Source: Psammoneis japonica (lineage: Eukaryota). From it: 20,000 bases of DNA. Below, piece by piece: positions 459-20,000 of this stretch (its first letter is position 1; the number at the start of each line of letters is the position of its first letter). The position numbers were made by a program, and so were the translations under genes. Under the pieces are notes generated by a model. The model had not been told where the DNA came from and searched no databases. It saw only the letters and a list, made by a program, of their open reading frames with translations. The stretch is from the NCBI GenBank assembly GCA_008632985.1, contig QPGO01000201.1, positions 118,919-138,918 on the forward strand, written 5' to 3'.

Positions 459-1481
459 ATGACAGACTTGCGGTGTCTTTCCAAGAAGTGTCTCGGTTGG
501 AGAAGGAGGATTCTTCTTGCTTTCATCAGCCTTGTTGTGAGTTCCGCCTTTGAACGAAGACTTGCATTGCGGCCCATGAAACCCATTCTTCATAACAAGA
601 ATATCAACAACAAAAAGCACTGCCAAGAAATCATGGCAGTGTGTACCGATGATCCACGAGCAGTCGAACGATGGCTGAATCGAAATCTCCGGGAAAATTA
701 TGTTGGATTTGATCTCGAGGTGAGTCCAGTTAGTCTTTTTAATAGCTTGTTTACAGAAAATCTAAAGTATGCATGCATTGTCTACTAGTCCGTCCCCGAT
801 CTCCCTTGGAAGTCATACAAGTACACTGGTCCCGCAACGATGCAGCTTGCTACGGTAGATTCTGCCATTGTCATTGTGATTGCCGATTCCTTCACTGGTC
901 CGAATCGCAAGGTCTTGCCACTCTTGGGAGACTTGCTAGCGGATGAATCACTCTTGAAAACAGGTGTCGGAATTCATGGAGACATGGTGGAACTCCATCA
1001 ATGGCAGCCAGCCTATTTTGACTCGATTCATGGCAGATTTGATATGGGTGGTATCGGAGGTATCAATCCAGGACATCAACAATCTTTGAAACGGCTTAGT
1101 GAAGATGTTTTGCATGTGGAATTGTTCAAATCCAGAAAGATTGCCCTAAGCAATTGGGCACGGAGTCGCTTGACGGATCAGCAATTGAATTATGCGGCGC
1201 GAGATGCCTGGGCAGCGGCGGCCATTGTTCATGAAATATTATCCAAGGGAATACGCTCCAGTGACGAAATAGCAGATTGGATCCAAGAACATGAGATCCC
1301 CATTGATGAATTTATGAGAAGATCCATGGAACGCAAGGAATGCCGACTCCGTTACAAGCAAATCAAGCGTTTGGAAGAGTTTCAGCAAGAGGCTGAGGAA
1401 TTGTTCCAAAAAATGAGTCAGCTTGCTCCACCACGGCCAATGGTGATTGAATATAAGAAAGACAAAGACGACAAGCAGTGA
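459..1481 (+). CDS. DnaQ/DEDDy 3'-5' exonuclease, WRN-exo/EXD2-like; two exons join(459..719,789..1481)
   Basis: Intron 720-788 (GTGAGT...CTAG) joins the two ORFs in frame. This gives ExoI VGFDLE, QLAT, ExoII GVGIHGD, SLKRL, SNW and ExoIII YAARDA. The N-terminal hydrophobic stretch ends in VSSA-F. Confidence 0.85.
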
Positions 1482-2144: not shown

Positions 2145-2951
2145 CTAGTACTGCCCGGTCGGTTTCCTCATGGCCAATCTTCTCAATTCATCCACGCTGG
2201 GTATATTTCCGTCATCATCGGTTAGTCTTCCCGTCTGACGATAATCCGTGACGGCAATACCCATTTCCGAAACAGCCAGCATGGCCCGGTCTCTATCTTG
2301 CCGCTCAATGGCTTTTCCAAAGACACCGCATTGTGTTTCATAAGCTTTGCAGTCGGCCATCATTTGCTTGGCGTACGAATTGCTCATGCCAAGGCCTTGT
2401 CCGTCCAAACTCGATACGTATAGTTTCATTGGCAAAATGGCATTGTCTGCCGTCTTGTAAAATTCCGATACCCCTTCCCAATTGCCATCGTCAATCATGG
2501 GTGGAACAACTGTGATGGTGTTGCTCACTTTTTGAATCCGAGGGAGATAACGCTTTTTGGCTGTGGGATAGTAATACGCTGTTGATTGATTGGAAAAAAG
2601 ATGGATACGGCATGAGTGACTCGAAACAAATCAAGACCTTTAGATTTTTTGAATGAGAAAAGAAATGGAAAACGTACATGCTCGCAGAGTCGGGTCGATT
2701 CCTTTATCTCCTTTTTGTCCCTTGGCAATCACAACGGTGGAGGACTGGTCCTTTTGTACAATTTTGTTGGGATCCGCACCAAATTCATCCAACAAACCCG
2801 CCTGTGCTGCACTCGGAGCCGCCGCAGTAGCTGCCGCAGCAGTCGCCACGGATTGAAGGAGGCTTCGTCGGTCCATGGAGCCTGGGACCAACGCCACAGA
2901 CGAGGCCACAAACATGGATGCCACAATCGTAGAAGTCAAAACAAGTTTCAT
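2145..2951 (-). CDS. Nucleus-encoded plastid thylakoid-lumen protein of unknown function (235 aa); exons complement(2678..2951) and complement(2145..2578)
   Basis: Signal peptide MKLVLTSTIVASMFVASSVA, then twin-Arg DRRSLL, an Ala-rich h-region and an AQA cleavage site (Tat lumen signal). A 99-nt GTACG...CAG intron (2579-2677) joins in frame: ...PTLRAS-YYYPTAKKRYLPRIQKV... Confidence 0.75.
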
Positions 2952-3295
2952 GGCTTTGCGCTCTTCTTCTTTTAAGTTGAAATGGAGATGAACAAAAGGA
3001 TTTGTGACATCCAATGCTCGCAGATGTTCTGTCGACAACGCACCACGTCGATTGCATTGGCCGCTTGCGTTTTCTTCTGCTGTTATTGTTTTGTGAGAAA
3101 GGTGAGGGGTGACGTGGCTCCATCCGACCGCGCGAGATCGCGCATGCCACAGACGACGGCTCTGAATGGAGGAGTGGATGCATGGACAGACCGTGTTGGA
3201 GGGAGTTTCTGAATTTTCGAAAATTGTTCGGAAGCCACCAGCCACTCAACATGACGTTGAAGGCTCACAAATAATATAATGGCTGACATGGATAC

Positions 3296-3526
3296 AGTCA
3301 CGACTCAACGTCATTCTGGTCGCATCTCACGACTGCAACCCAGACTCAGATTTTCTCTTCGAAACAATTGGCTCATCACAAAATCGATTCAAACAGAAGC
3401 AACGACATTCGTCATAATTTCTAGACAACGACTTTCAACAAGCGTCTGTTTACCTCTGTCGCTGTTCACATTGCTGCCAACCTCCGAGGTCTTGCCCATC
3501 CCACTCAGCTGCAGGGCTGCATCTCG
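3296..3526 (+). repeat. 5' LTR
   Basis: Direct repeat of 10293-10523 at offset 6997. By-eye alignment gives 11 mismatches, all transitions, and no indels. Confidence 0.93.
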
Positions 3527-3528
3527 AC

Positions 3529-3542
3529 TGGTTGCAGAGCCC
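3529..3542 (+). promoter_or_regulatory. Primer-binding site, resembling the complement of the initiator tRNA-Met 3' end
   Basis: TGGTTGCAGAGCCC lies 2 nt after the LTR. It has one mismatch to the iMet-type PBS TGGTAGCAGAG. Confidence 0.7.
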
Positions 3543-3691
3543 AATTTGTGCGTTGACGAGAGCTCCTGACCGAGTCATCGTCACGGACGCTTTCGGTTTT
3601 TGATTTTGAAGCAAACCCGGGAAATAGCTGAGTCTCTCTCGCTTCTCTCGTCTTCACTCTAACAAGAACCTCCCATGCTGCACTCTCTGTC

Positions 3692-6187
3692 ATGGCTGCC
3701 ATCGATCCAGATGTTCTGGCGAAGGCGTTTGCCGATGCAATGGCCGCCAACGCCGCGGCGACCGCTCCTCCGGCTCCAACCAAGCCGTTACGTGGTGGAA
3801 TTCACCCAACCCACGGGGTTTACATTGGTGGTTCCAAACTCAACAACAACTGCGAACAATCCAATGATAGAACCTGCCGGCTCGCCTCTCAGCGCCGTCA
3901 TCCCAAGGCTCTCGACTCGATAGAACGATCTCTCCGCGATCAACAAGCTTCCGCAATGACTTCCAAGTTCAACGGTCGACTTGAGATTTCAGATGGTCCC
4001 ATCAACGAGCTTGACAAGGACCATTTCGTCAAGACTGTTCGAGATCTGGTGGAAGCCCACGGTCAGCAGACGTTCTGCCATGTCAAGGACAGCGACGACA
4101 AGGTTCAATGTGTCTTCGACCATCTTCACGAGTTTACTGTGACCGATCTCGTGAACGAGTGCACGGTTGGGAAAGCAGCTGCCGATGATGCCAAGTACGA
4201 CGAGATCAAGCTCGACGACATCGGGCTCTCTCAACTTCTCGTTCACTCAAGAATCACCAATGCCTTTCGCGAGAAAATCGAGACCAAGTTCAACCATCTT
4301 TCGGACTGCCAAGACTGCCCTGGATCTGTTCCATTCATGATGGCTCTCGATGCTTGCAATGCTGGTGCTCTGACGGATGTTGAGACGGCTGAGAAGCAGC
4401 TAGAAGACCTCAGTTTGGTTGACTGTCCCAGCGAGGATTGCACGGACTTTGCTGCCGAAGCTCTTCGCATCGTGAAAATCATGCAGACCGACTGCGCGCT
4501 TCCGGCGAACACAAGCTCCAAGCTGCTCCACAAGATCTCCTCTGCGTCCTCTGAGTGCTTCAATCGCCGAGTCTACAACAAGCTCAACGACGTCAAGGCC
4601 ATGGAACGCAAGCACCGCCTCAAGAATCCTGCTGACATCGTGTCCGACAGCGATCACAGAACGCTCGGACCGGTCGGCATCATTGCGTGGATTCAAGAGC
4701 AACACAACGAACTCGTGAAGGACAGGGAATGGCCTGCATTGGCAGCCAAGCTACCCGAGAGTAATCTTTCGACTACGGATGACCCTGTGAAGACGAAGCA
4801 CTGTCATGGTTGCGGTCTCGAGGGGCACACCAAGAAGACGTGTCCGAAGTGCAACGCCAAACCGCCGCGCGACGATCCTCCTCCCAATCCGCCGCCTGCA
4901 GACGACCCTTCCAGGAAGAAGAGGCGACCCATCGCTGCCTGGCGCACTAAATTTGACGGAGAAACGAAGAAGGATAAGAATGGCAAGGAATGGAAGTGGT
5001 GTGCCACGTGCAAGGCGAAGGGTGCCGACAAACCTGGAATCTGCCAGAAGCACTCTACCGCGGAACATGCCGACGACCGCAGGCAACCTCCCAAGGAGAC
5101 CCCAGCAGGGAATTTGTCTTCCGTTGCTGATCCGGACAGTGGCGTGCCCATGGGTCCGCCCGCTCAGACTACCAAGGAACCAGAGGGAGACGAATCCGAC
5201 CCCAACGAGTTGGTTTTCACGGGAATGTGGTGCGCGGCTACGGATCCCGTTGCCGACCCGGATTTCTGTTCCGCCCCTGTCACTGCTGCAATTATTGTCA
5301 CTCCGGCTTCCGAGAGGGAGAGCGACACAGTCGTTAGCACTGAGGTGGTTTGCATCGAAACGAGCCCACCTGTGCTCACCTCAGTCGTGGATCCAGTCGT
5401 GTCTCCCATCGTGGTTGAGACTGTCACTCCCGAAGACGCCGATGACTTCTGCGAATGCTCCGACGCTTTCTCTACCTTTGAAAACGAACCACCGGCTATT
5501 GAGTTGTTTCCGGCCTCGAAGCTGTGCTCTGTCGAGCATCCGGATGAGTTCTTTGACGCTCCCGCACATTTGACGGATGTGCTGTCAGACGACACCAAGT
5601 TAGATCTCATCCTTGAACACGACGTACACTTTGAAGACGCATGCTACGACTTGCCTCCGTGTGTTACGTATCGTGGCTTCGATTTCTACGATCCAGAGGT
5701 CCTGGATGCGGATGATTGTCACGAGGACGTCGAAGACGAGCCCACTTCGCGTCGCTCACTCTTGGGTCGAGTCAAGCCATTCATACTCTGGCTCGCCGCC
5801 ATGTTTTGGGAAACGGCACTGCATCTTTGCTTTGCTCCGATCCCATGTATCCCTCGAGCTCTACGCCGCCAGCGCAAACTCCCAACTTTGCACGGGTTTC
5901 CAGCCTCCTGGATGGTCCTGTCCGTTGCAGTGATGGCATGGTCAGCAGTTTACGCCGGTCAACAGCCCGAGTGTCCATTCTCGAACGTGCCAAGTCGTTT
6001 TTCGACCGCCAGCTCTCAAGTCTACCACATTGTGGAAGAGCTAGATGACCGGATAGTGTCAGATACGGGGTCACTGTTCGAATGTCACAGGATCAAAGGC
6101 ACGCAAGTGCTCACCGAGTTTGTCGCGCGCCATCCGTCACACGCACTGAGCACTCGTCTCAAGGCCTGCTGGGAGAGCCAGAAGTAG
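3692..6187 (+). pseudogene. gag: Retrotransposon Gag with zinc knuckles plus a long acidic/hydrophobic linker
   Basis: CX2CX4HX4C knuckle CHGCGLEGHTKKTC (4802-4843) and a second WKWCxxC...H....H motif. It is the first long ORF after the PBS and is strikingly Cys/His-rich and Tyr-poor. Confidence 0.8.
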
Positions 6188-7476
6188 CTGAACGGTCTGA
6201 TGCGATAGACGAATCAGCCTTCTTTGACACCCATGAGGAACTGGAACCTCTCGACGACCAGAAGCATTTCTTTGACGCTCTTGAGGACTTCAGCCCGGAT
6301 TTCTTCCGGTTTGACGAGCTCTGTCTGCCGCATCACATCGTGGACACTGCCCATTTTCAAGATCCTGTGGAACTGTTGGAGGAAGCAAGTGTTAGACCAG
6401 TCGTCTATGACACCTCCACCATCCAACTGCTCACCGGACAATCACAAGCCGACCTCCTTGCATCCGATCCGCAGGCACTCATCGGTCTGTCGGACGAGGC
6501 TCTCACGGTCGTCATGGACACTGGTGCCACGTTAGCCATCACCCCCGATGAAGATGATTTTACGGGGCCTGTGACTGTTCCCAAGAAACCCTTGCAGATC
6601 AATGGGATTGCCAACGGTCTTGCCATCCAGGGTGCCGGTCCGGTTGCGTGGGTGTTCACAACGCCGAGTGGGGCTGCCATCCAACTGAACACCATGGCAT
6701 GCTACGTCCCTGGAGCCCGTCAGCGCCTGCCATCGCCTCAACGCCTCTTCAACGAAGAGAAGGGGGTACGTGGGAAGTGTGAGGGCGATGAAACCACTTT
6801 CCGTTTACAAATTGACGGGATGGGCAAGTTGGTCGTGCCATGTCATCCATCAAGCCACTCACCCATTGCGTCGATGACCAAGGGCGCATCTGCCGCTCCT
6901 CAAGTGAACCTTCAGATCCTTATCGAGGAGAATCAAAACCTCACGGCAGGCCAAAAGCTTCTTCTCGAAATGCACGCCCGTTTTGGCCATTTGAACTTTG
7001 GTCGCGTCCAAGCACTTCTCCGCGCAGTTCCGTTCCTTTCGAACCGTTTCAAGTCCGCAGCGAAGTGTGACCACCCAAGATGCGAGGCATGCGAACATGC
7101 TAAAGGTCACAGACGCTCTCTTGGATCTACTCACAAGTCGACAGTCCCTGAACGCGACGGGGCCCTTCGAGCTGACCATCTTCGACCGGGTCAGGCTGTC
7201 AGCGTTGATCATTTTGAGTCGCGCCTTTTAGGCCGCACCTTCGACTCTTGTGGCAAAGCCACGTCCAAGCAATTCAAGGGCGGTTGTGTCTTTGTCGACC
7301 ACGCCTCTGGCTATGTCCAGGTCGAGCACCAACTGGGTTTCTCCGCTGTTGAGACGATGCGCGCGAAGCAAGCGTTTGAGAAACATGCTTTGGACCACGG
7401 GGTCATCGTCCAAGAATTTCTTACCGACAGTGGCGCTTTCAAGGCCAACGCTTTTGCACAACATGCGAGAACATGA
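6082..7476 (+). pseudogene. pol: Pol part 1: aspartic protease, integrase zinc finger and start of the integrase core
   Basis: Protease VVMDTGATLAIT; HHCC finger HARFGH...CEAC; core VSVDHF, FVDHASG and LTDSGAF. Frame changes near 7460-7476. Confidence 0.88.
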
Positions 7477-9780
7477 ACAACGTCTCCGTTTTTGTGGAAC
7501 CAACGCCCATCATCAGAACGGCGTCGCAGAGCAGGGCATCCGCGGCATCTCCAACATGGCGAGAGCGATGTTGCTTCATGCATCAATCCACTGGAAGGGG
7601 GGAATTGACAGCTCCCTGTGGCCCATGGCAGTTTCTTGTGCCACGCACATCTACAATGTCACCCCAAATTCCAAAGGACATTGCCCAGCGGACATTTTCA
7701 CCGGTTCGACAGTGCCAAGACATCGGTTGCGCGACATTCACACATGGGGATGTCCAGCGCACGCACTTGACCCGACCCTCGCTTCCGGGAAGAAGCTCCC
7801 GCGTTGGGAGCCTCGCACTCGTCGCGCTTTGTTCGTGGGACTCAGTGCCATCCATTCCAGTGAGGTTCCTTTGGTCCTCAATCTTCAAACTGGAAGTGTC
7901 GCACCTCAGTGTCATGTGGTCTTTGACGATCTCTTCACTGCCGCACCATCAATCGAGAGGGAGACGGATCCACCTGATCACTGGGAACACTTGTGCCTCA
8001 ACCAATCGACATGCATCCCTCTGGAGAAGGATCAGGCAGTTCATTTACACGATGAGTGGCTTGCCCCTCCAGAGCGTCAACGTAAAGAACGAGAACTAGC
8101 CAGAGCAACACGCATTCGCGGGCATTTTGAGCCTGCTCCATCGATTGCTGTGCCGGATTCACCCACTTCTCGCGACGACGTCACCGATCGAGTCGCACCT
8201 GCGACTCAGCAGCCAACGCCACCAGTCCCACCTGCGACTCAAACTCCTGCAGACTCTACGGACTCTACGCCAATTCAGCCACCTGAACCTCAAGACAGCA
8301 ACGGACTTCCGCCACCCGAAGCGCCGACGGAACCAACAGCTCCTCCCCCAGTCGAGACACCTCCCATGACGAATCCAGAGGGAGCACCAGGGCTGCGACG
8401 GTCTTCACGGTCAACCAAGGGACAGTTCAACTCCACCAAGTTTGTAGATGAGGTCTGCTTCAGCTCCGTCGAGGAAATGCCGCTGCCGATCGGACACGAG
8501 GCTCAACTGGCGTATCTGGCGACTCTCGAGACGGATTTGGACAGTGGCGCCATCAATGTCGGCGATCCACGAGCCTGCGCAGCTAGTGAGAAAACCAAGG
8601 ACCCTGACATGCCTTCATTGCACAATGCTCTGAAAGGTCCGGACGCCGACGAATGGATTGAGGCGATGAAAATTGAAGTCAACGCACTCACACATCGTCG
8701 AGCCTGGAAAGCAGTCGAGCGTCAGCCGCGTGTGAATGTACTTCCAGGCACATGGGCACTAAAGCTCAAGAGACTCCCAGATGGAACCCCTCTCAAGCAC
8801 AAGGCCCGATGCTGCGTCCGCGGTGATTTGCAGAAAGAAGGAGTCGACTGCTTCGAAACCCATGCGCCGGTTGTGCAATGGTCCAGCACCCGACTCATGC
8901 TCACTGCGGCATTAAAGGAGGGATGGACTGCACGACAGGTGGACTGCACCACAGCCTTTTGCCAAGCTGACATCGCCGAGGAAGTTCACACAACACCGCC
9001 GAAGGGATTTGCGCCAAGGTCGGGACTCAATGTGGTTCTCAAACTTTTGAAAGGACTACACGGCCTAAAACAGTCTCCCAAGGGCTTCTACGAGAAGTCA
9101 CGAGCTGGTTTAACCGAGCGCGGATGGGTGCCTTCAGCCACAGATCCCTGTTTGTATTTCAAAGAGGGCATGATGTGTGTGGTGCACGTCGACGACACCG
9201 TTTTTGCTGGAGCTTCAGCTGAAGCTCTAGAAGCCGAAATTCGCAAGTTAGGAGTCTCCGACGACGAACATCGCCACGCATTTGAACTTAGAGACGAAGG
9301 AGAAGTCGGCAACTTTCTCGGTGTCAAGATCGAAAAGCTCTCCGAGGGTCGATTTCTACTCACTCAACCCGGTCTAATTGACAAGGTCCTGCACACCGCA
9401 CAGATGCAGGATTGCAATGGAGCATCTGCTCCAGCTCTACCTGCGGCTGTTGGTGCCGACACGGACGGCCTGCCTTTTGATGAACCCTGCGATTGTCGCT
9501 CAGTTGTTGGAATGTTGATGCACTTGGCAGCGAACAGCCGGCCAGACATTGCACATGCCACACATCAAGTGGCTCGATTCTCGTTTGCACCCCGAGCGTC
9601 CCACGCTGCTGCAGTGAAGCGGATGCTCCGATGCCTCAAAGCAACTGCTGCTGAAGGTCTCATTCTCAAGCCTGCGCAAGATCATCGAGTTGATTGTTGC
9701 GTCGATTCTGACTTCGCGGGGTTGTTTGGTGTGGAAGATGGTCAAGACCCAGTTTCTGTCAAGTCCAGGACTGGATCCTG
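7460..9780 (+). pseudogene. pol: Pol part 2: integrase C-terminal core and reverse transcriptase
   Basis: AHHQNGVAE (catalytic E), WGCP, PQxHVVFDD; RT motifs KAR.CVRGD.Q, QVD...AF, LHGLKQSP, DPCL, HVDD (for YVDD, 9185-9196) and SRPDIA; start of RNase H DSDFAG. Confidence 0.9.
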
Positions 9781-10271
9781 TCTGCTGCGCCGGCTGCCCG
9801 CTTGTCTGGGTGTCCAAGCTGCAGACTCTTGCAGCATTGTCGACTGTGGAAGCGGAATGTGTCGCACTTTCTCAAGCCATGCGCGATCTCATCCCCATTC
9901 GTGAAGTTCTCAAGGAGCTCAACCACCACGCACTCGGAAAGTCTGACCGCCAAAACCCTATCACGACTCACTCCAAGGCTTTTGAGCTCGCAACCCAAGG
10001 CACCGATGACTCGCCTGTAGAGCAGAATGTCCTGCCTGCGTCCGTTGTGTACGAAGATAACTCCGCGTGCCTCAAGTTCGCATGCATGCCCAAGTTGTCT
10101 CCGCGAACCAAACACATCGGTATCCCGCACCACTGGTTTAGGACTAAAGTCGAACAATTGGAGATCGACATCCAACCTGTCAGCACTCTAGAGCAACTGG
10201 CCGATCAGTTCACGAAGGGACTGCGGACCGATGCGTTCCGTGCGGCTAGAAAGGCTCTCATGGGCTGGTGA
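9770..10271 (+). pseudogene. pol: Pol part 3: copia-type RNase H
   Basis: GCPLVWVSKLQT, LSTVEAE, VYEDNSAC, RTKHI, QLADQFTKGL, ending ...LMGW-stop. Confidence 0.9.
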
Positions 10272-10283
10272 GCTCTCTCGGTT

Positions 10284-10292
10284 GAGAGGGAG
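10284..10292 (+). promoter_or_regulatory. Polypurine tract (plus-strand primer)
   Basis: GAGAGGGAG immediately before the 3' LTR. Confidence 0.85.
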
Positions 10293-10523
10293 AGTCACGA
10301 CTCAACGTCATTCTGGTCGCATCTCACGACTGCAACCCAGACTCAGATTTTCTCTTCGAAACAATTAGCTCATCACAAAATCGATTCAAACAGAAGCAAC
10401 GACATTCGTCACAATTTCTAGACAACGACTTTCAACAAGCGTCTGTTTGCCTCTGTCGCTGTTCACATTGCTGCCAACCTCCGAGGTCTCATCCATCCTG
10501 CTCAGCTGTGGGACTGCATCTCG
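10293..10523 (+). repeat. 3' LTR
   Basis: Direct repeat of 3296-3526. Homology ends after ...GCATCTCG. Confidence 0.93.
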
Positions 10524-11153
10524 TCCAATGCGAAGCTCGCCTTGGCGGCAGAAAAGGTGGCGGTCGGGTTGGGAGCACAAACCAAGTGCATCAATCTTGG
10601 ATCTCACGAGCTGCCCCTCTACAATCAAGATGACGAGGCGGACAAGGGGATGCCATCCAACGCTGTGAAACTCAAGGAGGAGTTGTCATCAGCAGATGGA
10701 TGGATCATTGCTGGTCCCGAGCACAACGGATCCATTGTGCCCCTTGTTGTCAACGCATTTACGTGGTGCAGCCGTGGCGACCCAGAAGGATCGCCCATGT
10801 GCGCCACATTTCATGGAAAGTCTGCAACAGTTCTCAGTGCGTCTCCTGGCGCCATGGGAGGCATGAGGTCGTTGAATCCTCATCGTCAGTTGTTGCAAAA
10901 CTTGGGAGTGAACGTGTTGCCCGCATCGGTTGCTGCAGGAGGCGCCTTCAATGCCTTTGATGACACTGGAGCCTTGACGGATTCACGGCACAAATCCATG
11001 CTTGAGGCCGCAGTCAGTGATCTTTGTTGCCAAACGAGAGACAAAGCGAACCGCGAAGCAACGTGTGATTTAATCCGTGCCAGCACGGTGGGAGAGTGCG
11101 GAAATGTCGACGTGGCTCAACAGTGGTTTTTGCCAATGCAAGCATCACAGTAG
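10524..11153 (+). pseudogene. NADPH-dependent FMN reductase (flavodoxin-like, ChrR/SsuE family), 5'-truncated by the LTR and hypermutated
   Basis: SNAKLA, LPLYNQD, ADGWIIAGPEHNGS (family P-E-Y-N), and SASPGAMGGMRS. The N-terminal GSxR phosphate-binding loop and a start ATG are missing at the LTR junction. Confidence 0.85.
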
Positions 11154-11229
11154 ATTCAATGTTGAATCATCATCCTGCCGATGGACGGGTTCACACACAA
11201 CTGCATTTTCGACGCAACGAAGAGCACCA

Positions 11230-11249
11230 CTCTCTCTCTCTCTCTCTCT
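11230..11249 (+). repeat. (CT)10 microsatellite
   Basis: Direct reading. Confidence 0.9.
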
Positions 11250-11802
11250 GTCAAGCGTGTTTGATCTCTCGAATTTTTCGGCTCTTACCCACCAATGAGG
11301 AGGGGGAAACGCGTCTCGCACAAGCAACATTGTGATCCCAGGAAGAAAGCTGAGAGTCACAGCTGCTGTCAGGGTCTCTGGAACTTCGATGAGTTGGATC
11401 CGCGACAACTGCCGCAACAGAGGAACACCGGCAAGAGAGTGGAAAATCTGTCTGTGTGCACAATTTCCATCCGAGGCAATTGCGACTAATTTTTTTGAAA
11501 TTTCAACACAATGTCAATGAATGCATGTCTGCAACAATGCGTCATCGGCGGTGACGACAGAAGCTCGAGCGATGTGCGTGCGATGTTGTGATGACGATCC
11601 TCATTCCTCATCATGGCACTGTTTGTGTCGGCGTGCCACGCAATGCAAACAACCCACGCCACAACCATCAACAGACATTGCCATGCGGGATCACACCCTG
11701 GCATGTGTCCTTCAGCCTGAAGCCTTCAGTGCGTTGCCGACGCCGACTGCCCATTGATTTGCCCACTCTTGGGCGTTCGTTGGGGGCTCTCTGACAGATG
11801 CA

Positions 11803-14038
11803 ATGGTGATGATTGCGCGGCTGATGGTTGTCGCCTTTGTTTGCGTTAAAGCAATTCTTGGCTCCAAATGCAGCGGTTGCGAAGATCGTCAGGCATGAAA
11901 CGCATTCTCTGCTTTGGAAGAAGTTGCGGTGCAAGGGCGTTTCGCAATGCATGAGTTCTTTTTTTGTCACGCAAGTGAAGATCACTGCAAGGGTTCGTCC
12001 ACTTTCCAATTTCGCACATGCCTCACATTCTCCACCTCTCCCGCTTCCAACACAGCAAAGGCATTGCTCCAAGAACTGTCGACAACTTGGACACGGCAAG
12101 AAGAAGGGTGTTAAAAAAGGAAAGTTTACGAATGTAGCGAGGAAACGAGGGAAAAGGAGTGAAACGCCATCCGCAGCCCCCTCGAGTTCTCCAAGCGGCA
12201 AGCCATCCCAAGAACCGTCCAGTGTGCCATCCAGGTCACCCAGTTCTGCTCCAAGTGGTGCTCCCAGCATTTCTCCAAGTAAGAGCCCGTCGGCAGCACC
12301 CTCTAGCATGCCCAGTGAATCGCCTTCCGAATCGCCTTCCGAATCGCCAAGCGCCACACCGAGTGATTCTCCGAGTGAAACCCCGTCAGACATTCCTTCA
12401 AACATGCCAAGCGCATCGCCGTCCCAAAAACCAAGCAATGCCCCGAGTGGCGCTCCCAGCAGCGCTCCAAGCGACGCCCCGTCGGATGCACCTTCGAAAA
12501 TACCGAGTAGATCGCCAAGCTGTGCGCCGAGTAGAACTCCAAGTGAAACTCCGTCGGATGCACCTTCAAACATGCCGAGCAAATCGCCGTCCCAAACACC
12601 AAGCAATGCGCCAAGTAGTGTGCCAAGTAAACGCCCAAGTGAAACACCATCGGAATTTCCTTCAGGCATGCCGAGCACATCGCCGTCCCAAAAACCAAGC
12701 ATTCTCCCAAGCAGTGCTCCCAGTGGCGCTCCAAGTGAAACCCCGTCGAACGTGCCTTCAAACATTCCGAGTGCGTCACCGTCCCAAATGCCAAGTGATG
12801 CCCCAAGCAGTGCTCCCAGTGAGTTTCCGAGTGAAAATCCATTGGAGTTACCTTCCAGCGTGCCGAGTAGATTGCCAAGCTCTGTTCCCAGCACTGCTCC
12901 AAGTGGAACCCCATCGGATGCACATGCCATCAAAACAAGTTCATCGCCGTCCGAAACACCAAACAGCTCCCCAACGCCGCCTTCTTCACCGGCAGGTCCC
13001 ACAGTTCCTTCGACTCCACCATCAGATGCTCCTTCATCAGGCCCGGTGGCTGGCCCAACACCTCCTCCATCGAGTTCGCCATCCGGTGCACCATCATCAG
13101 GCCCGGTGGCTGGCCCCACACCCCCTCCAACAGCGACACCATCGGATGCTCCTTCATCAGGCCCGGTGGCTGGCCCAACACCTCCTCCATCGAGTTCGCC
13201 ATCCAGTGCACCATCATCAGGCCCGGTGGCTGGCCCGACATCCCCTCCAACAGCGACACCATCGGATGCTCCTTCATCAGGCCCGGTGGCTGGCCCCACA
13301 CCTCCTCCATCGAGTTCGCCATCCGGTGCACCATCATCAGGCCCGGTGGCTAGTCCCACACCCCCTCCAACAGCGACACCATCGGATGCTCCTTCATCAG
13401 GCCCGGTGGCTGGCCCCACACCTCCTCCATCGAGTTCGCCATCCGGTGCACCATCATCAGGCCCGGTGGCTAGTCCCACACCCCCTCCAACAGCGACACC
13501 ATCGGATGCTCCTTCATCAGGCCCGGTGGCTGGCCCAACACCTCCTCCATCGAGTTCGCCATCCAGTGCACCATCATCAGGCCCGGTGGCTAGTCCCACA
13601 CCCCCTCCCACAGCGACACCATCGGATGCGCCTTCATCAGGCCCGGTGGCTGGCCCCACACCTCCTCCATCGAGTTCACCATCTGGTGCACCATCATCAG
13701 GCCCGGTGGCTAGTCCCACAGCGACACCATCGGACACCCCTTCATCAGGCCCGGTGGCTGGCCCCACACCTCCTCCATCGAGTTCGCCATCCGGTGCACC
13801 ATCATCAGGCCCGGTGGCTGGCCCCACACCTCCTCCATCGACTTCACCATCCTCTGGTCCAACAGAGCCATCAACAGCACCTGACAGTGTTCCGTCAACA
13901 TCTCCACCCGGCTCTCCGTCCTCGGGTCCTGCAGCTCCGTCAATGGGCCCCGCAGCACCGACGTTTCCAACAGTCTCGGGTCCGACAGCTCCGTCAGCAC
14001 CCGCACCCCCACCGACTCAAATCTTCCGTAGAAAGTGA
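11803..14038 (+). CDS. Secreted Pro/Ser/Thr-rich mucin/extensin-like protein with RXL site and Lys-rich patch; 5' exon uncertain and possibly pseudogenised
   Basis: Continuous frame 12056-14038: RQL-GHGKKKGVKKGK, then PSxxPS repeats and 40-aa repeats. A signal-peptide-like MVMIARLMVVAFVCVKAILG starts at 11803, with a putative intron 11971-12055 and an in-frame TGA at 11896. Confidence 0.65.
12160..12920 (+). repeat. Degenerate 12-nt (PSxx) coding repeat with four higher-order PSETPS...SPSQ blocks
   Basis: Translation shows PSETPSDIPSNMPSASPSQ, PSETPSDAPSNMPSKSPSQ, PSETPSEFPSGMPSTSPSQ and PSETPSNVPSNIPSASPSQ. Confidence 0.85.
13021..13840 (+). repeat. Near-perfect coding tandem array, 120-nt unit built of two related 60-nt halves (~7 units)
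   Basis: CATCAGGCCCGGTGGCT recurs every 60 nt. Units start at 13021, 13141, 13261, 13381, 13501 and 13621, with one 12-nt deletion near 13720. Confidence 0.95.
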
Positions 14039-14186
14039 TTGTGAAGCCCGTGTGCGTTGTATCTTGAACGACACTGCGCACTTCAGCAATTCAGCGTCTT
14101 TGCAATACCTAAATCTTCCGTAGGTGAGGCTGCGTGCGTTGTACCTTAGACGGTACTGCGCACTTAAACAATTCATCGTCTTTGCA
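14019..14186 (+). repeat. Degenerate direct repeat (14019-14104 and 14111-14186) overlapping the stop codon and 3' UTR
   Basis: Both copies read AAATCTTCCGTAG...GTGCGTTGTA...ACTGCGCACTT...CAATTCA.CGTCTTTGCA. Confidence 0.8.
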
Positions 14187-14286: not shown

Positions 14287-15363
14287 TTATTTCTTCGTAG
14301 GAGGTGTGTATTCCCTCTCAGGGTTCTCTCTTTCAGTTCAGGGTCAAGCTTCCAGGCGTTGCTCTCAACACCGTTCATATTGTATACAAAGTGCTCCATT
14401 CTACGAAATGCGCCTGTTTGATCAAGACGTCATTGCACGCCCCGCTGACAATGCAATAGTTCCCATCGTAGGGTGCCTTGTGGTGCAATGCATGAGGTTT
14501 CCGTCCAATTATAACGCCCGCGTCTTGAAGCCAATTTACCCATTGCGGCACCTCACTCTTGTCATGTGCGACCACTTGTGAAATNTCCTGAGAAAGAATT
14601 TCCAGAGAGCAAAACACGGCCAAGAAGAAAGTAACTGTTGGTCCGCTAAGAAAAGAAATGAGAGCCATTGTGGGTACGCCGAAGGGGACGCACAGTTTGT
14701 ACACGTTATTGCAAAACTCGCGTTCTGTAATTGTCCATGGAGCCGAGTGATGACCTTGAAATGCAGCAATGATATTTCCCATGATTGGAGTACGGCCATT
14801 GCCGTAGTTGTCGACCGACCAATGCAACACACCCGAGCCAAAATCTGCAAGCAACCAACTTGATACGGCAAGCGCTAATGCCTGAGTGCTTGTCGTTGCC
14901 AGGTCGCCACCATTGCTTGAGTACAATTCCTGCAATGCAGCTGCAGCTATGGCCCCGTTTCCCAAGAATGTTCCAAGCACCATGGCAACTTGATAAGGTT
15001 GTGTCTCCAGCGTGTCTCCCTCGACGACAACTGAAGCTACCTTTCCCTTTGGCCGTTCGATACCAGATCCCTCTAATCCAAAAACGAATCCATCGTCAAG
15101 ATACGTTTTCGATTGTGTCTCGGGAACTGATACATCTTGTTCTGACATGACGCTTACAGCATTCAGTGATGTAGAGGACTGGGAGTTTAGAGCCTTCGCG
15201 TTGCTATTCAATCTTGGCTCGTTGGCATTCATTGAAAGGCGACTCTTGCTTGTGATTCGCTTCGATGATGAAAAGCTGACTCGTCGTTGTGTGGAAGCTG
15301 TAAACTTTCGACATTACATGAAAGCAACAGCAATACGGAGCAAGCGAGAGAAGGAATCTTCAT
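14287..15363 (-). CDS. FAD4: Plastid fatty-acid desaturase 4-like (delta3-trans; TMEM189/Kua domain); several apparent 1-nt assembly frameshifts
   Basis: ADFGSGVLHWSVDNYG, FQGHH, FHKWSH, HALHHKAPYDGNYCIVSG. Signal peptide MKIPSLACSVLLLLSCNVES is followed after a shift by FTASTQRRVSF, a transit peptide. The C-terminus FRRMEHFVYNMNGVESNAWKLD is in a shifted frame. Confidence 0.85.
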
Positions 15364-16377
15364 GGTTCTTGAATGAGGTGTGGAGTAGTGAGTGAAGGGA
15401 AGAAAAAATGAAACGCGTTGCAAGAAAGACCTCACAAAGAATTTATGTGTAAATATGCTTCCAAAACAAAATGAACAAGAGTGAATATCACCACGTGTGA
15501 ATGAAGTGGTGTGAACGTAGTGGCGAGTACAAAACATCATCGACCGCAAAACAACAAAGAAATGTGAGTCATCCGCATCAACTCGAAATTTGAAAACGAC
15601 GTGGCGAATTCCATAAGTAATTTGCCTTCGGATTACGTCATTCACGCTGAGATGTATTCAAAAACATATGTTCATAAGGATTTATAATAAAGCCACGTGT
15701 GTCCGTCACTGGCGACACGCCGAAGCAAAGCTTGCTACTGCCCTCACAAATTCGCGGCACTCCGCACGAGCCAAAAAAAATGATGGGACGCTGTGGAATG
15801 AACTTGCCGAAAAGATCAAGATGATGAAACGAAACGATAGGTGCACGTGTGTCGATGATGTAGGTCTCCAATGCAGGAGGTGACATCATGTGATTCACTC
15901 GCTTCCTATCATGCTTTGAAGCGGGCTGAAACCCTTCATTGCTTTACAGGGGTATTTTGAGAGAGCTTGTTCGAACTTCGGTTCTGTGCGGCATGGATTA
16001 AACTATTCGGTTTTCTGCGAGCGAACTGTGTAAAGACAAATATTAATAACTTATACGAAAACGATCAACCTACTATATGATGCAGCTAGCATAAGTTAAT
16101 CCAGCGCTCGTCACCAAACCAGTTGTTGTATTCTAACAAACCAAATTGCAGTAGCAAGATTGAATAGTAATAAAACGACATGATATTCACTATTCTAAGG
16201 CTCGAAACAGTGATTGTAAACATGTACAATGCTAAATAAGTTACTGGGAATACTGAAAGACACAACAAATCTACTTTTTCTCGTTCATCACGACGCTTCG
16301 ACTTGACGAACCGTGTGGAACGATGAATTGTGTACAATCCCAACTAGGATACCTGGAATGGAACGCGCTCCACTCGT

Positions 16378-17265
16378 TTAGATGTTTTCCTTGTCCAAGT
16401 CGTCAAAGTATGGGTGGTTCAACGAGTCCTTGGCCGTGATGCGCTCGTTGGGGTTGTACGCGAGGAACTTCTCCAACAAGGCGAGCCCAAGGCTATCCAG
16501 ATTGTCTGTTACCGATGGAGAAAACTGTGACTTGTACCAACGAGGAAAGGCAGAGTTCCAATCCGGTAGCTGCGTGACACCGGGCCAGACTTGTTCGTTA
16601 GGCGTGCCGAGCTGACGAAAGATTTTGTAGAGCTGATCAATTTCTGAATCACCAGGGAACAGAGCACGCTTGGTGACCATTTCGACAAAGATGGTGCCGA
16701 GAGCCCACACGTCAGCGGGTGGAGCATAAGTCTGTGATCCAAGAAGAATTTCAGGAGGGCGATACCACAACGTAACCACCTCGTGGGTAAGCGGACGGAT
16801 CGGCGGGCAGAAAGCACGAGCCAGTCCAAAATCAGCCAGCTTCAACCTTCCATCCCTGGAAACGAGCAGATTCTGCGGTTTGAGATCCCGATGCATGACA
16901 CCGCGTGCGTGACAAAAGGCGAGACCCCGGCAGCACTGGAACAGGTACGACTTGACGAGAATGGCTGAAGCTGATCATTGCAAGACTCCATGTACTTTTT
17001 CAAATCACGGTCGAGAAACTCAAACACGAGGTACAGCTTTCCGTCAGATTGCACGCAATCCTTAAGCTCGACGATATTCTCGTGGCTAAGCTCTCTCAAG
17101 AGACTAATTTCACGCAAGCCGTCGGCGGANATCTTCCACTTCGAGTCGGATCCTCTTGAGAGCAACAATCTCATCCGTCTGACGATCGCGGGCTTTGTAC
17201 ACGACGCCATAAGTACCCTCGCCGAGGTTAGAACCGGGCTTTTCAATCTTCTGATACCTGTACAT
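16378..17265 (-). CDS. CDKA: Cyclin-dependent kinase, CDK1/CDKA type (probably PSTALRE/CDKA2-like); frameshifts near an N
   Basis: RYQKIEK...[68 protein letters not shown] and HPYF. The cyclin-binding helix is corrupted at N 17130 but reads T-A-L-R-E when one base is restored. Confidence 0.93.
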
Positions 17266-17414
17266 GCCGAGAGTCGATAGAAGTTAGAGGGGTTGTGAAT
17301 AGAGAGTTGTTTTTGCCATTGGCTTGTCCGCTGATATTGCAAAAAATTGGGAAACGGATAGGGCAGGCTAGCTACAGGCTTCTCAGTACATTTCTACGGC
17401 GAACGTTATTTTCA

Positions 17415-17965: not shown

Positions 17966-20000
17966 ATGATACGCCAAGGATGCAGACTGTCGACGAGAGC
18001 TATCGGTAGCGGGAAATGGACAGTTGGACCGTCATGTTGTTTGAGCCTTCAAAAATCAGAGACATGGCTACAACAACAAGAACGTAGGTGCTGTGCGATA
18101 TTCCCGTCAAGAAAATCACCTGCCACAAGGCTGTTTCAACGTAATTCAGTTGCACCAAGAGGAGGTCTTTTCTCAATTGATGGGTTACACAAGCCATCCG
18201 ACTTTGTGGCTCTGGCAACAGATGCTAAATCGGTATGTGACGGGCTGCGTTCCTCCTTGACGAGTTTGGAGGCCATTACGTCTAAAGAACACGCGTCTGA
18301 AACTTTAAAGAGACTGGACAATGTCAGCAAGACTGTATGCAATGTCATTGATGCGGCCGAATTATGTCGATCCGTCCATTCTTCTGTAGCATGGCGGGAA
18401 GCGTCGTCCAAGGCTTTTGCAATCATGAGTGATTACATTGCATTGTTAAACTCCGACACACATTTGTACCGTGCGTTATCCATGGTTACAAATTCGGATT
18501 ACTTTCCCCAGTTATCTCAAGAAGAGCAACGATTTGCAATTCTACTAAAGGCGGAATTTGAACGTGATGGAATACACTTGCCGGATGAAGAACGAAACAA
18601 AGTACGAACATTGCAAAACCATGTAACTCAATTGGAAACGCTCTTTACCGACAACATTACGCATTCAAGAAAATACTTTGATGTGGACGCTGCATGGGTT
18701 GAAGAAATTATACCGCGGCACATTTTGGAAGCGCACGTTCCACAATCAAACAAGGANNNNNNNNNNNNNNNNNNNNNNNNNNNNNNNNNNNNNNNNNNNN
18801 NNNNNNNNNNNNNNNNNNNNNNNNNNNNNNNNNNNNNNNNNNNNNNNNNNNNNNNNNNNNNNNNNNNNNNNNNNNNNNNNNNNNNNNNNNNNNNNNNNNN
18901 NNNNNNNNNNNNNNNNNNNNNNNNNNNNNNNNNNNNNNNNNNNNNNNNNNNNNNNNNNNNNNNNNNNNNNNNNNNNNNNNNNNNNNNNNNNNNNNNNNNN
19001 NNNNNNNNNNNNNNNNNNNNNNNNNNNNNNNNNNNNNNNNNNNNNNNNNNNNNNNNNNNNNNNNNNNNNNNNNNNNNNNNNNNNNNNNNNNNNNNNNNNN
19101 NNNNNNNNNNNNNNNNNNNNNNNNNNNNNNNNNNNNNNNNNNNNNNNNNNNNNNNNNNNNNNNNNNNNNNNNNNNNNNNNNNNNNNNNNNNNNNNNNNNN
19201 NNNNNNNNNNNNNNNNNNNNNNNNNTTGTTTGGAATATCAATGAAAGATAGTATGGACGATGAGGAGAAAATGGGATGTCGGAGATGATGGCAGTCATCT
19301 TGGTGTAAGGTTCGCAAGTTTGTCTTTCATGACGAGAACCGTCGACCGTTGGGTACAATGTATTTGGATCTTCACCCACGAGAAGGCAAGTACGGGCACG
19401 CAGCACACTTTACTGTTCGATGTGGCTGCGTTATTGGAGGAGGACCGAGTGAGCGACGCGGAGATGAGGAGTACCAGCTACCTATTGTTGCTCTTGTATG
19501 CAACATGTCGTCTCTCATCAAGCTCAATTCTAAGTCATTCTGAGGTCGAAAACTGTTCCATGAGTTTGGCCATGCATTACATTCCCTGCTGTCACGGACA
19601 ACCTTCCAGCACCTATCTGGCATCGTGGTGCCATGGACTTTGTCGAAACGCCATCGCACCTGTTCGAACAATACGCATGGGACCCAACGTTTCTCAAGGT
19701 TTTTGCAAGACACCATCACAGTGGTGAGCCAATACCGGACGACTTGATACACAAATTGGTTCAATCTAGGAACGAGTTTCGTTCCATTGATATACAAAAT
19801 CAAATTATTGTATGCACTTTTCGACAGACCATATTTGGAATACCGGACCTTCCAGCCAAGTACTACGCAAGTTCTTTGCAAAGTATCACAAGATCTTTGG
19901 TGTCCCATACGCGGAAGGCACTCACTGGCATTCACGCTTTGGGCATTTGGTCACGTATGGTGCTGGACTTATGGATATCTCTATGCTCAGGTGTTTGCAG
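17966..20000 (+). CDS. MIPEP: Mitochondrial intermediate peptidase (M3A metallopeptidase, MIP/Oct1); gapped, frameshifted in assembly, continues beyond window
   Basis: Arg/Ser-rich presequence MIRQGCRLSTRA; LDNVSKTVCNVIDAAE; EFERDGIHL; GTMYLDLHPREGKYGHAAHFTVRCG; zinc motif HEFGH (19559-19573); DFVETPSHLFE; HSRFGHLVTYGAG. Confidence 0.92.
18757..19225. other. Assembly gap (N run)
   Basis: Direct reading. Confidence 1.

Follow-up and report, generated by a model that had tools for sequence, protein, structure and literature searches.

The DNA analysed here is a 20,000-nucleotide (nt) stretch of contig QPGO01000201.1 of Psammoneis japonica, referred to below as the window; it is a single eukaryotic locus, and among named organisms its genes have their nearest relatives in diatoms. 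The window contains a Ty1/copia retrotransposon, followed by the remnant of a host reductase gene, a spacer and a tandem array, with further genes on both sides (Table 1). The element and the adjoining single-copy DNA have lost between about two thirds and nine tenths of their TA dinucleotides, and with this loss tyrosine codons and TAA and TAG stop codons have disappeared. This pattern is probably the result of TpA-specific T:A to C:G hypermutation that acted on chromosomal DNA after integration of the element.

The element shows the features expected of the Ty1/copia group: two long terminal repeats (LTRs), a polypurine tract and the order gag, protease, integrase, reverse transcriptase (RT) and RNase H, and its tblastn alignments are collinear with full-length relatives. 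The pol region matched the Pfam families gag_pre-integrs, SH3_retrovirus and RVT_2 (E=1.4e-33). Its frame changes lie near 7433-7470 and 9780-9793, and the three frames run for 475, 890 and 217 codons without an in-frame stop. The closest named relative of its Pol protein is that of Fragilaria crotonensis, with an identity of about 55%, and the retrotransposon is a many-copy, CoDi-like Ty1/copia element of a diatom. A protein search with the gag-like open reading frame (ORF) returned three distant relatives only and no sister copies. The putative primer-binding site was placed by what we take to be a resemblance to initiator methionine tRNA (tRNA-iMet) primer sites. Inspection of 3291-3295 and 10521-10527 revealed no target-site duplication, and therefore the locus was probably rearranged after the insertion, for example by recombination between copies. 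A tblastn search of the whole window revealed no copia fragment beyond the element, and the left flank matched neither a copia protein nor a Pfam family. The assembly has a gap of 469 N at 18757-19225 and single Ns at 14585 and 17130.

Table 1. Positions of the features in the window and the evidence for each
Feature	Position	Strand	Evidence or remark
3'-5' exonuclease gene	789-1481		
TpA-depleted domain	2713..14101	n/a	change-point fit; right border uncertain, 12346 to 14101
Left flank, TA-depleted (spill-over), without detectable transposon homology	2713..3295		TA observed/expected 0.29 over 2601-3295
Ty1/copia element	3296-10523		two LTRs, gag-like ORF and pol
5' LTR	3296..3526	+	231-nt direct repeat, 95% identity with 10293-10523
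Putative primer-binding site	3529..3540	+	resemblance to tRNA-iMet primer sites
Gag-like ORF with zinc knuckle (P0001)	3632..6187	+	tblastn 3779-6127 to distant gag-pol
pol (protease, integrase, RT, RNase H), three frames	6214..10268	+	Pfam, tblastn, homologues of about 55% identity
Polypurine tract, adjoining the 3' LTR	10284..10292	+	read from the sequence
3' LTR	10293..10523	+	231-nt repeat
Host NADPH-dependent FMN reductase pseudogene	10521..11153	+	Pfam FMN_red E=8.5e-24; diatom homologues
Spacer, flank-level depth, most TA-depleted stretch	11154..12346	n/a	TA observed/expected 0.12
Tandem array, 96-nt and 60/120-nt units, Pro/Ser/Thr-rich repeat	12347..14024	+	Pfam PT repeat E=1.3e-11
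Lipid desaturase gene	14375-15313	-	
Protein kinase gene	16378-17393	-	
M3 peptidase gene	from 19564		

The ratio of observed to expected (O/E) TpA was 0.21 over 2701-14024 (121 observed, 569 expected), as against 0.55 for the left and 0.61 for the right flank. CpG was not depleted in the same domain (O/E 0.90), and TG and CA were at 1.29 and 1.32. In 1-kb segments, TpA O/E was 0.08-0.36 from 2501 to 14000 as opposed to 0.44-0.71 in the N-free flanks, while CpG O/E was 0.63-1.06 and TG/CA about 1.0-1.8. A two-change-point fit on the frequency of A after T placed the borders at about 2713 and about 14101, with T followed by A at 122 of 2470 Ts inside the domain and at 349 of 2123 outside it, and its log-likelihood was -1434.6 against -1518.6 for a model without a change. 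The first-pass annotation, which had been made from the letters of the window, had described TpA as scarce and CpG as plentiful here, and these values bear it out; its hand counts of three TA in 11161-12060 and nine in 16021-16080 were exact, and all 19 peptide motifs that it quoted were found on the + strand between 6724 and 10125.

In the Pol ORF, TpA O/E was 0.19 and tyrosine made up 0.4% of the residues; the gag-like ORF had a TA O/E of 0.28, with 0.9% tyrosine and 3.9% cysteine, and the reductase remnant, at 0.12 and 0.5% tyrosine, was as poor in TA as the spacer. The intact genes just outside the domain, by comparison, had a TpA O/E of 0.41-0.60 and 2.6-3.5% tyrosine. Counted per kb on each strand, the domain has 2.4 TAA and 3.8 TAG stop codons compared with 8-11 in the flanks, a drop of about three-fold, while the frequency of TGA was unaltered (19 compared with 20). 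Because TAA and TAG have been lost, long ORFs are present in all six frames. The unit of the tandem array (12347-14024) is natively almost free of TA, and its units vary too little for a test; the depletion there is therefore not attributable to the process, and the secure extent of the domain is 2713-12346. Across the array, three overlapping ORFs of 661-782 codons occur on both strands (11668-14123) because TAA and TAG are scarce, and a family match, to the Pfam PT repeat, was obtained only for the + frame 11825-14038.

To follow the direction of change, we compared the element Pol with 33 homologues, in which 370 alignment columns were conserved at 80% or more. The element kept the conserved residue in 287 of these columns, but the conserved tyrosine in only 2 of 15 as against 285 of 355 for the other residues (Fisher p=1.2e-7), and the lost tyrosines were replaced by cysteine six times and by histidine five times. 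A codon-level tally over the 344 columns before the last frame change gave 65 differing residues, for which 22 were single TpA-type steps (14 TA to TG and 8 TA to CA), 23 were other single steps and 20 required several steps, so that TpA-type changes made up 22 of the 45 single-step replacements. At 14 conserved tyrosine columns, each of 120 homologues had at most two cysteine or histidine residues, whereas this element had them at 10 of 12. The overall composition of Pol was shifted in the same way, with 0.4% tyrosine compared with 3.0 +/- 0.3% in the homologues and 3.1% cysteine compared with 1.6 +/- 0.2%. We also used the Pol-coding stretches of 80 related copia loci from metagenomes as comparison DNA, and in all 80 TpA O/E was 0.40-0.88 (median 0.62), as opposed to 0.20 in this element. 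The view of the first-pass annotation that cysteine and histidine at conserved tyrosine positions are derived states, with a polarity of TA to TG or CA, is thus upheld, both in the element Pol and in the host pseudogene described below, and neither the cysteine and histidine excess nor the poverty in TA is shared by the 120 homologues and 80 loci. CpG O/E was below 0.5 in 41 of the 80 related loci (median 0.48), and TpA was normal there; the decay of the elements therefore differs, as the relatives show an ordinary CpG loss that is not seen in the element of the window.

The same analysis contained some signs of change outside TpA. The GC content of the element was 0.55 compared with 0.46 in the flanks, and the lost TA accounts for only about 2 points of this gain (about 210 sites in 11.3 kb). 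Some shift from isoleucine, phenylalanine, lysine and asparagine towards alanine, proline and arginine was also present in the proteins. Both observations favour an explanation without any special process, in which the pattern came from the native composition or codon bias of a foreign element, from ordinary decay of a pseudogene, from gene conversion biased towards GC or from error-prone repair of the Pol eta kind at WA (W, A or T). The transitions outside TpA, however, run both ways, in about 6 cases against 4-5 by our reading of Pol together with the genuine reductase portion of the remnant, and therefore we found no general drive towards GC.

The FMN-reductase remnant provided a second, host-derived test of polarity. 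Its first base coincides with the end of the 3' LTR, where the tblastn match begins (10521), and about 31 N-terminal residues are absent and the stop codon has been lost; the missing N-terminus was not found by tblastn elsewhere in the window, including the far side of the element. The remnant is 63-65% identical to FMN reductases of the diatom Cylindrotheca closterium. Only one of five conserved tyrosines has been kept, in comparison with 115 of 127 other residues (p=7e-4), and TpA-type changes account for six of the eight replacements in the true part of the remnant. In particular, the reductase motifs PEYNG, MYATF and GEYG now read PEHNG, MCATF and GECG. Despite a Pfam E-value of 8.5e-24, the remnant has neither the full-length domain nor the PEYNG motif by which a PF03358 member is recognised, and it is a pseudogene remnant rather than a working member.

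The two LTRs of one insertion are identical at integration, and differences between them record what happened afterwards on the chromosome. The LTR pair differs at 11 of 231 bases, and all 11 differences are transitions. Nine are of the TA/TG/CA type, made up of three sites with TA in one LTR and TG or CA in the other and three TG/CA doublets, and two are of other types. The divergence amounts to 4.8% in total and to 0.9% (2/231) without the TA-type sites; standard LTR dating would make the insertion out to be far older than it is.

We next compared the window with the contigs of a public sequencing run (X1) that aligned to it at a likeness of at least 80%. One contig spans 2001-3209 with a single difference in 1209 bases and thus reproduces the depleted left flank. 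Word depth in the bins up to 3020 was at the single flank level of 57, and that of the X1 contigs was 46-57; left flank and spacer each lie on single contigs of flank-level depth, and both are TA-depleted. Two differences from X1 were present in the FMN-reductase remnant. The run X1 contigs were apparently cut at a (CT)n microsatellite at 11231-11250. Over 10936-12109, 30 bases differ between the window and X1; 26 of them are of the TA/TG/CA type and two are transversions. There were 16 sites at which the window has CA or TG and X1 has TA, five CA/TG doublets and four other differences, and no site at which the window has kept a TA that X1 lost. The X1 copy is therefore partly converted and the window copy almost fully converted. 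This unequal conversion shows that the process continued after the two sampled copies had diverged, so that it is recent.

Many copies of the element are present in X1: 3017 contigs align, and the word depth, when summed, is much higher across the element than across the flanks. Across the family we found 502 variable places, comprising 430 transitions and 72 transversions, with about equal numbers in both directions relative to this copy. At the putative primer-binding site, one dinucleotide is CA in this copy, TG in two others and TA in one.

TG/CA doublets taken alone could also stem from CpG. The single differences, which are unpolarised, pair TA with TG or CA 19 times (3 between the LTRs and 16 against X1) and CG with TG or CA once; since CpG is in addition undepleted, TA and not CpG is the ancestral state. 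Taken together, the differences between the two LTRs, the changes in the host DNA outside the element (the reductase remnant, the spacer and the left flank are mutated as strongly as the element or more so) and the differences of the X1 copy at the same type of site show that the change occurred in situ on chromosomal DNA after integration, on both strands. Action on both strands had been proposed in the first-pass annotation, and it agrees with the outcomes on the coding strand, which were TG at 27 sites and CA at 22. Conversion is also shown to be context-specific and, within the window, confined to the element plus its neighbourhood.

With respect to the bases around TA, the target appears to be 5'-TAY-3' (Y, pyrimidine) for a change of A to G, which is equivalent to RTA (R, purine) for a change of T to C on the other strand. 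Coding bias does not affect the 21 sites that come from the comparison with X1 alone, and 14 of the 16 asymmetric ones among these obey this TAY/RTA rule (binomial p=0.002). Among them, RTAR sites became CA nine times and TG twice, YTAY sites became TG five times and CA never, RTAY sites took either outcome (3 and 2), and YTAR was not represented in the 21. The 49 polarised sites comprise 19 RTAY, 18 YTAY, 11 RTAR and one YTAR, while the 48 TAs that survive in 7232-12346 comprise 21 YTAR, 15 YTAY, 7 RTAR and 5 RTAY. Relative to the flanks, depletion was strongest for RTAY (odds ratio 0.09) and weakest for YTAR (0.39). ApA was not a hotspot, with one A to G event after A among the polarised sites. 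Judging from these contexts, each event would alter one base of the TA pair, with the strand chosen per site: RTAY would be converted on either strand, YTAY to TG and RTAR to CA, and YTAR would mostly be spared.

Several observations weigh against hypermutation targeted at the repeat, or limit how far it can be carried. A single locus and contig-level data on the family make up the evidence. X1 may represent another strain, another haplotype or a paralogue, which are indistinguishable here, and contig filtering in X1 leaves the absence of the window version from that run unproven. Within the element, every X1 contig differs from the window at nine places, of which one is of the TpA type, in a list that is biased against recurrently mutated sites; ordinary mutations in other contexts are present too. 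The sites derived from proteins favour TAY by construction, as tyrosine is encoded by TAY, and the motif thus rests mainly on the 21 X1 sites. The products that the motif predicts (RCAR plus YTGY over RTGR plus YCAY) were at 1.16-1.21 in the domain compared with 1.13 in the flanks, without a clear excess. Additionally, TG and CA outcomes do not form strand runs (49 sites, z=0.22), which is unlike a single round of RIP (repeat-induced point mutation) or APOBEC clusters; this random alternation means either that the strand was chosen site by site or that many rounds blurred the runs. Finally, the domain is lopsided, extending about 0.6 kb to the left of the element and at least 1.8 kb to its right. 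The first-pass annotation had called it transposon-centred; confinement of the TpA-poor region to the repeat neighbourhood holds within the window, and the centring on the element does not, so that the term is a loose one.

The alternative that survives best, which we regard as unlikely, is that thymine and not adenine is attacked, with a dioxygenase of the TET/JBP type oxidising the T of TpA on silent repeats to 5-hydroxymethyluracil (5hmU) and then 5-formyluracil (5fU), which mispairs with G so that T to C is fixed. TpA is self-complementary, and A to G and T to C cannot be separated by sequence; the half-site may equally be written R-T-A. 5fU is known to be mutagenic, whereas 5hmU pairs with A, and we know of no TET/JBP-type enzyme making 5hmU or 5fU, nor of either base, in diatoms. 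According to the available text of a study on dinoflagellates, 5hmU is preferentially placed on T in TA and TC, is enriched in repeats and silences transposons (PMC11572971). That mark also occurs at TC, and no T to C excess at TpC was found here.

It is very improbable that the pattern is a sequencing or assembly artefact, in which a modified base at TpA in silent DNA (5fU, 5hmU or N6-methyladenine, 6mA) was misread as C or G. Modified bases do cause systematic miscalls on some platforms, and X1 would not be independent if the assembly was made from it, as it may have been. The X1 contigs, however, at the depths given above, differ from the window only once in the left flank and twice in the reductase remnant. 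In addition, where the two copies differ both are in clean states, and the five TG-versus-CA doublets among these sites cannot arise by misreading TA in one data set. The single Ns and the 469-N gap suggest a scaffolded assembly and not a raw long-read consensus.

Slightly less credible again is editing of RNA or cDNA, by which an ADAR- or ADAT-like enzyme would act on the transcript of the element, either beforehand or while it was being reverse-transcribed, and the altered copies would then integrate. In its favour, RNA adenosine deaminases change A to G next to a 5' U or T, and the same TA carries different outcomes in different copies. Against it, TG and CA are both found on the coding strand, the two LTRs of one insertion differ at TA-derived sites, and host DNA that never belonged to the transcript is mutated as strongly as the element or more so. 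The 3' neighbour is a pyrimidine here, while ADAR prefers a 3' G. Hyper-editing of RNA by ADAR or ADAT would also be limited to the element and to one strand, which is not what we observed.

The explanation without a special process is the least probable, since conserved, catalytically placed tyrosines cannot natively be cysteine or histidine, TA O/E is at least 0.40 in 80 of 80 relatives, transitions outside TpA run in both directions, transversions are rare (72 of 502 places in the family, none of 11 in the LTRs and 2 of 30 against X1) and, unlike the spectrum of Pol eta, ApA is no hotspot. Pol-eta-like synthesis at WA had been suggested as one mechanism in the first-pass annotation, and it fits poorly: such mutagenesis strikes both TA and AA and brings many transversions, which are nearly absent here. 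APOBEC-type editing of cDNA was also considered, and the G to A and C to T clusters that it leaves were not found; the polarised changes run from A/T to G/C at TpA.

Among the known systems, RIP of Neurospora and other ascomycetes, a premeiotic process which depends on RID or DIM-2 and changes CpA (or CpG) by C:G to T:A transitions, CpA becoming TpA, offers the closest parallel to the TpA-specific hypermutation. Both consist of transitions only, in one dinucleotide and on both strands; as in RIP, integrated repeated DNA may be the target here, with spill-over into single-copy flanks; both create a compositional domain and wreck reading frames, and both inflate LTR divergence, here to 11/231 from the 2/231 that remain without the TA-type sites. 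The defining feature of RIP is nevertheless lacking, as T:A changes to C:G at TpA instead of C:G to T:A at CpA. RIP leaves an excess of TpA and a loss of CpA and TpG, whereas here TpA O/E is 0.21 and tyrosine codons (TAY) have become cysteine and histidine codons. The first-pass annotation had placed the direction opposite to that of RIP, and this is supported by the tyrosine polarity, the LTR pair, the flanks and the relatives. Furthermore, GC is raised, stop codons are destroyed rather than made, strand-coherent runs are absent and the host is a diatom. An enzyme resembling a cytosine methyltransferase is incapable of this chemistry. The available text of one study describes diatom DNMT4 as related to RID and without a known function (PMC9998398), and DNMT4 would yield C to T only.

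The other parallels are more partial. Decay of CpG by deamination of 5-methylcytosine (5mC) likewise yields TG and CA, and copies that have undergone it can differ by TG/CA doublets too, but it removes CpG, which is intact in the domain (O/E 0.90), and TA is the dinucleotide that has been lost. The marking of transposons with 5hmU in dinoflagellates, attributed to TET/JBP homologues, is similar in its target (T in TpA), its location on transposons and its link to silencing; it differs in that the available text presents an epigenetic mark, with no T to C hypermutation reported there, with TpC as a further target and in an alveolate lineage (PMC11572971). ADAR, TadA, ADAT2/3 and fungal mRNA editing share with the window the change of A to G with T or U directly 5'. 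The natural TadA site, U-A-C, fits T-A-Y, while ADAR and fungal editing prefer a 3' purine. All of these enzymes act on RNA, in contrast to the chromosomal host DNA mutated here on both strands and with a 3' pyrimidine.

Repeat-directed hypermutation is, to our knowledge, known in essence from fungi and is always C to T. In the full-text literature we found no description of TpA to TpG/CpA hypermutation, in a library that is thin in subscription journals, so that this absence is not proof. In their available parts, a paper on Rhizoctonia reports ordinary RIP indices (PMC7884421), PMC5889660 does not mention diatoms, and according to a 2026 review no natural DNA adenine deaminase has been found (PMC13109818).

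If the hypermutation is real, enzymatic deamination of adenine to hypoxanthine in DNA is a tentative first candidate for its chemistry, and oxidation of thymine at TpA is a more doubtful second. A DNA adenine deaminase was also one of the two mechanisms suggested in the first-pass annotation. Hypoxanthine is read as G in base pairing, and the tRNA A34 deaminases are known to work always on U33-A34, in the case of TadA within U-A-C. Like RIP in fungi, the process may be directed at repeats or silent chromatin; the element is present in many copies, single-copy flanks are mutated as well, and one locus has been seen. It would then work as a transposon-inactivating system. In its strongest form, to which we give somewhat less than even credence, the proposal is that this diatom possesses enzymes of its own which turn A:T into G:C at 5'-TAY-3' in double-stranded chromosomal DNA, that they are targeted to transposons and the DNA around them, and that they still operate, as a 'reverse RIP'.

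For genome analysis, the consequences at this locus are direct. LTR dating is inflated about five-fold (11 compared with 2 differences in 231 bases), all six frames carry long but false ORFs for want of TAA and TAG, and host genes that adjoin elements can be destroyed as by-catch, as illustrated by the FMN-reductase remnant. If confirmed, the system would include the first DNA adenine deaminase known from nature, or else an activity that converts thymine to the same effect; a natural deaminase with a defined TAY motif would be of interest to enzymologists and to the makers of editing tools. A T:A to C:G version in a diatom would also be a second, chemically independent invention of repeat-directed hypermutation and would mean that this strategy arose more than once, with different chemistry.

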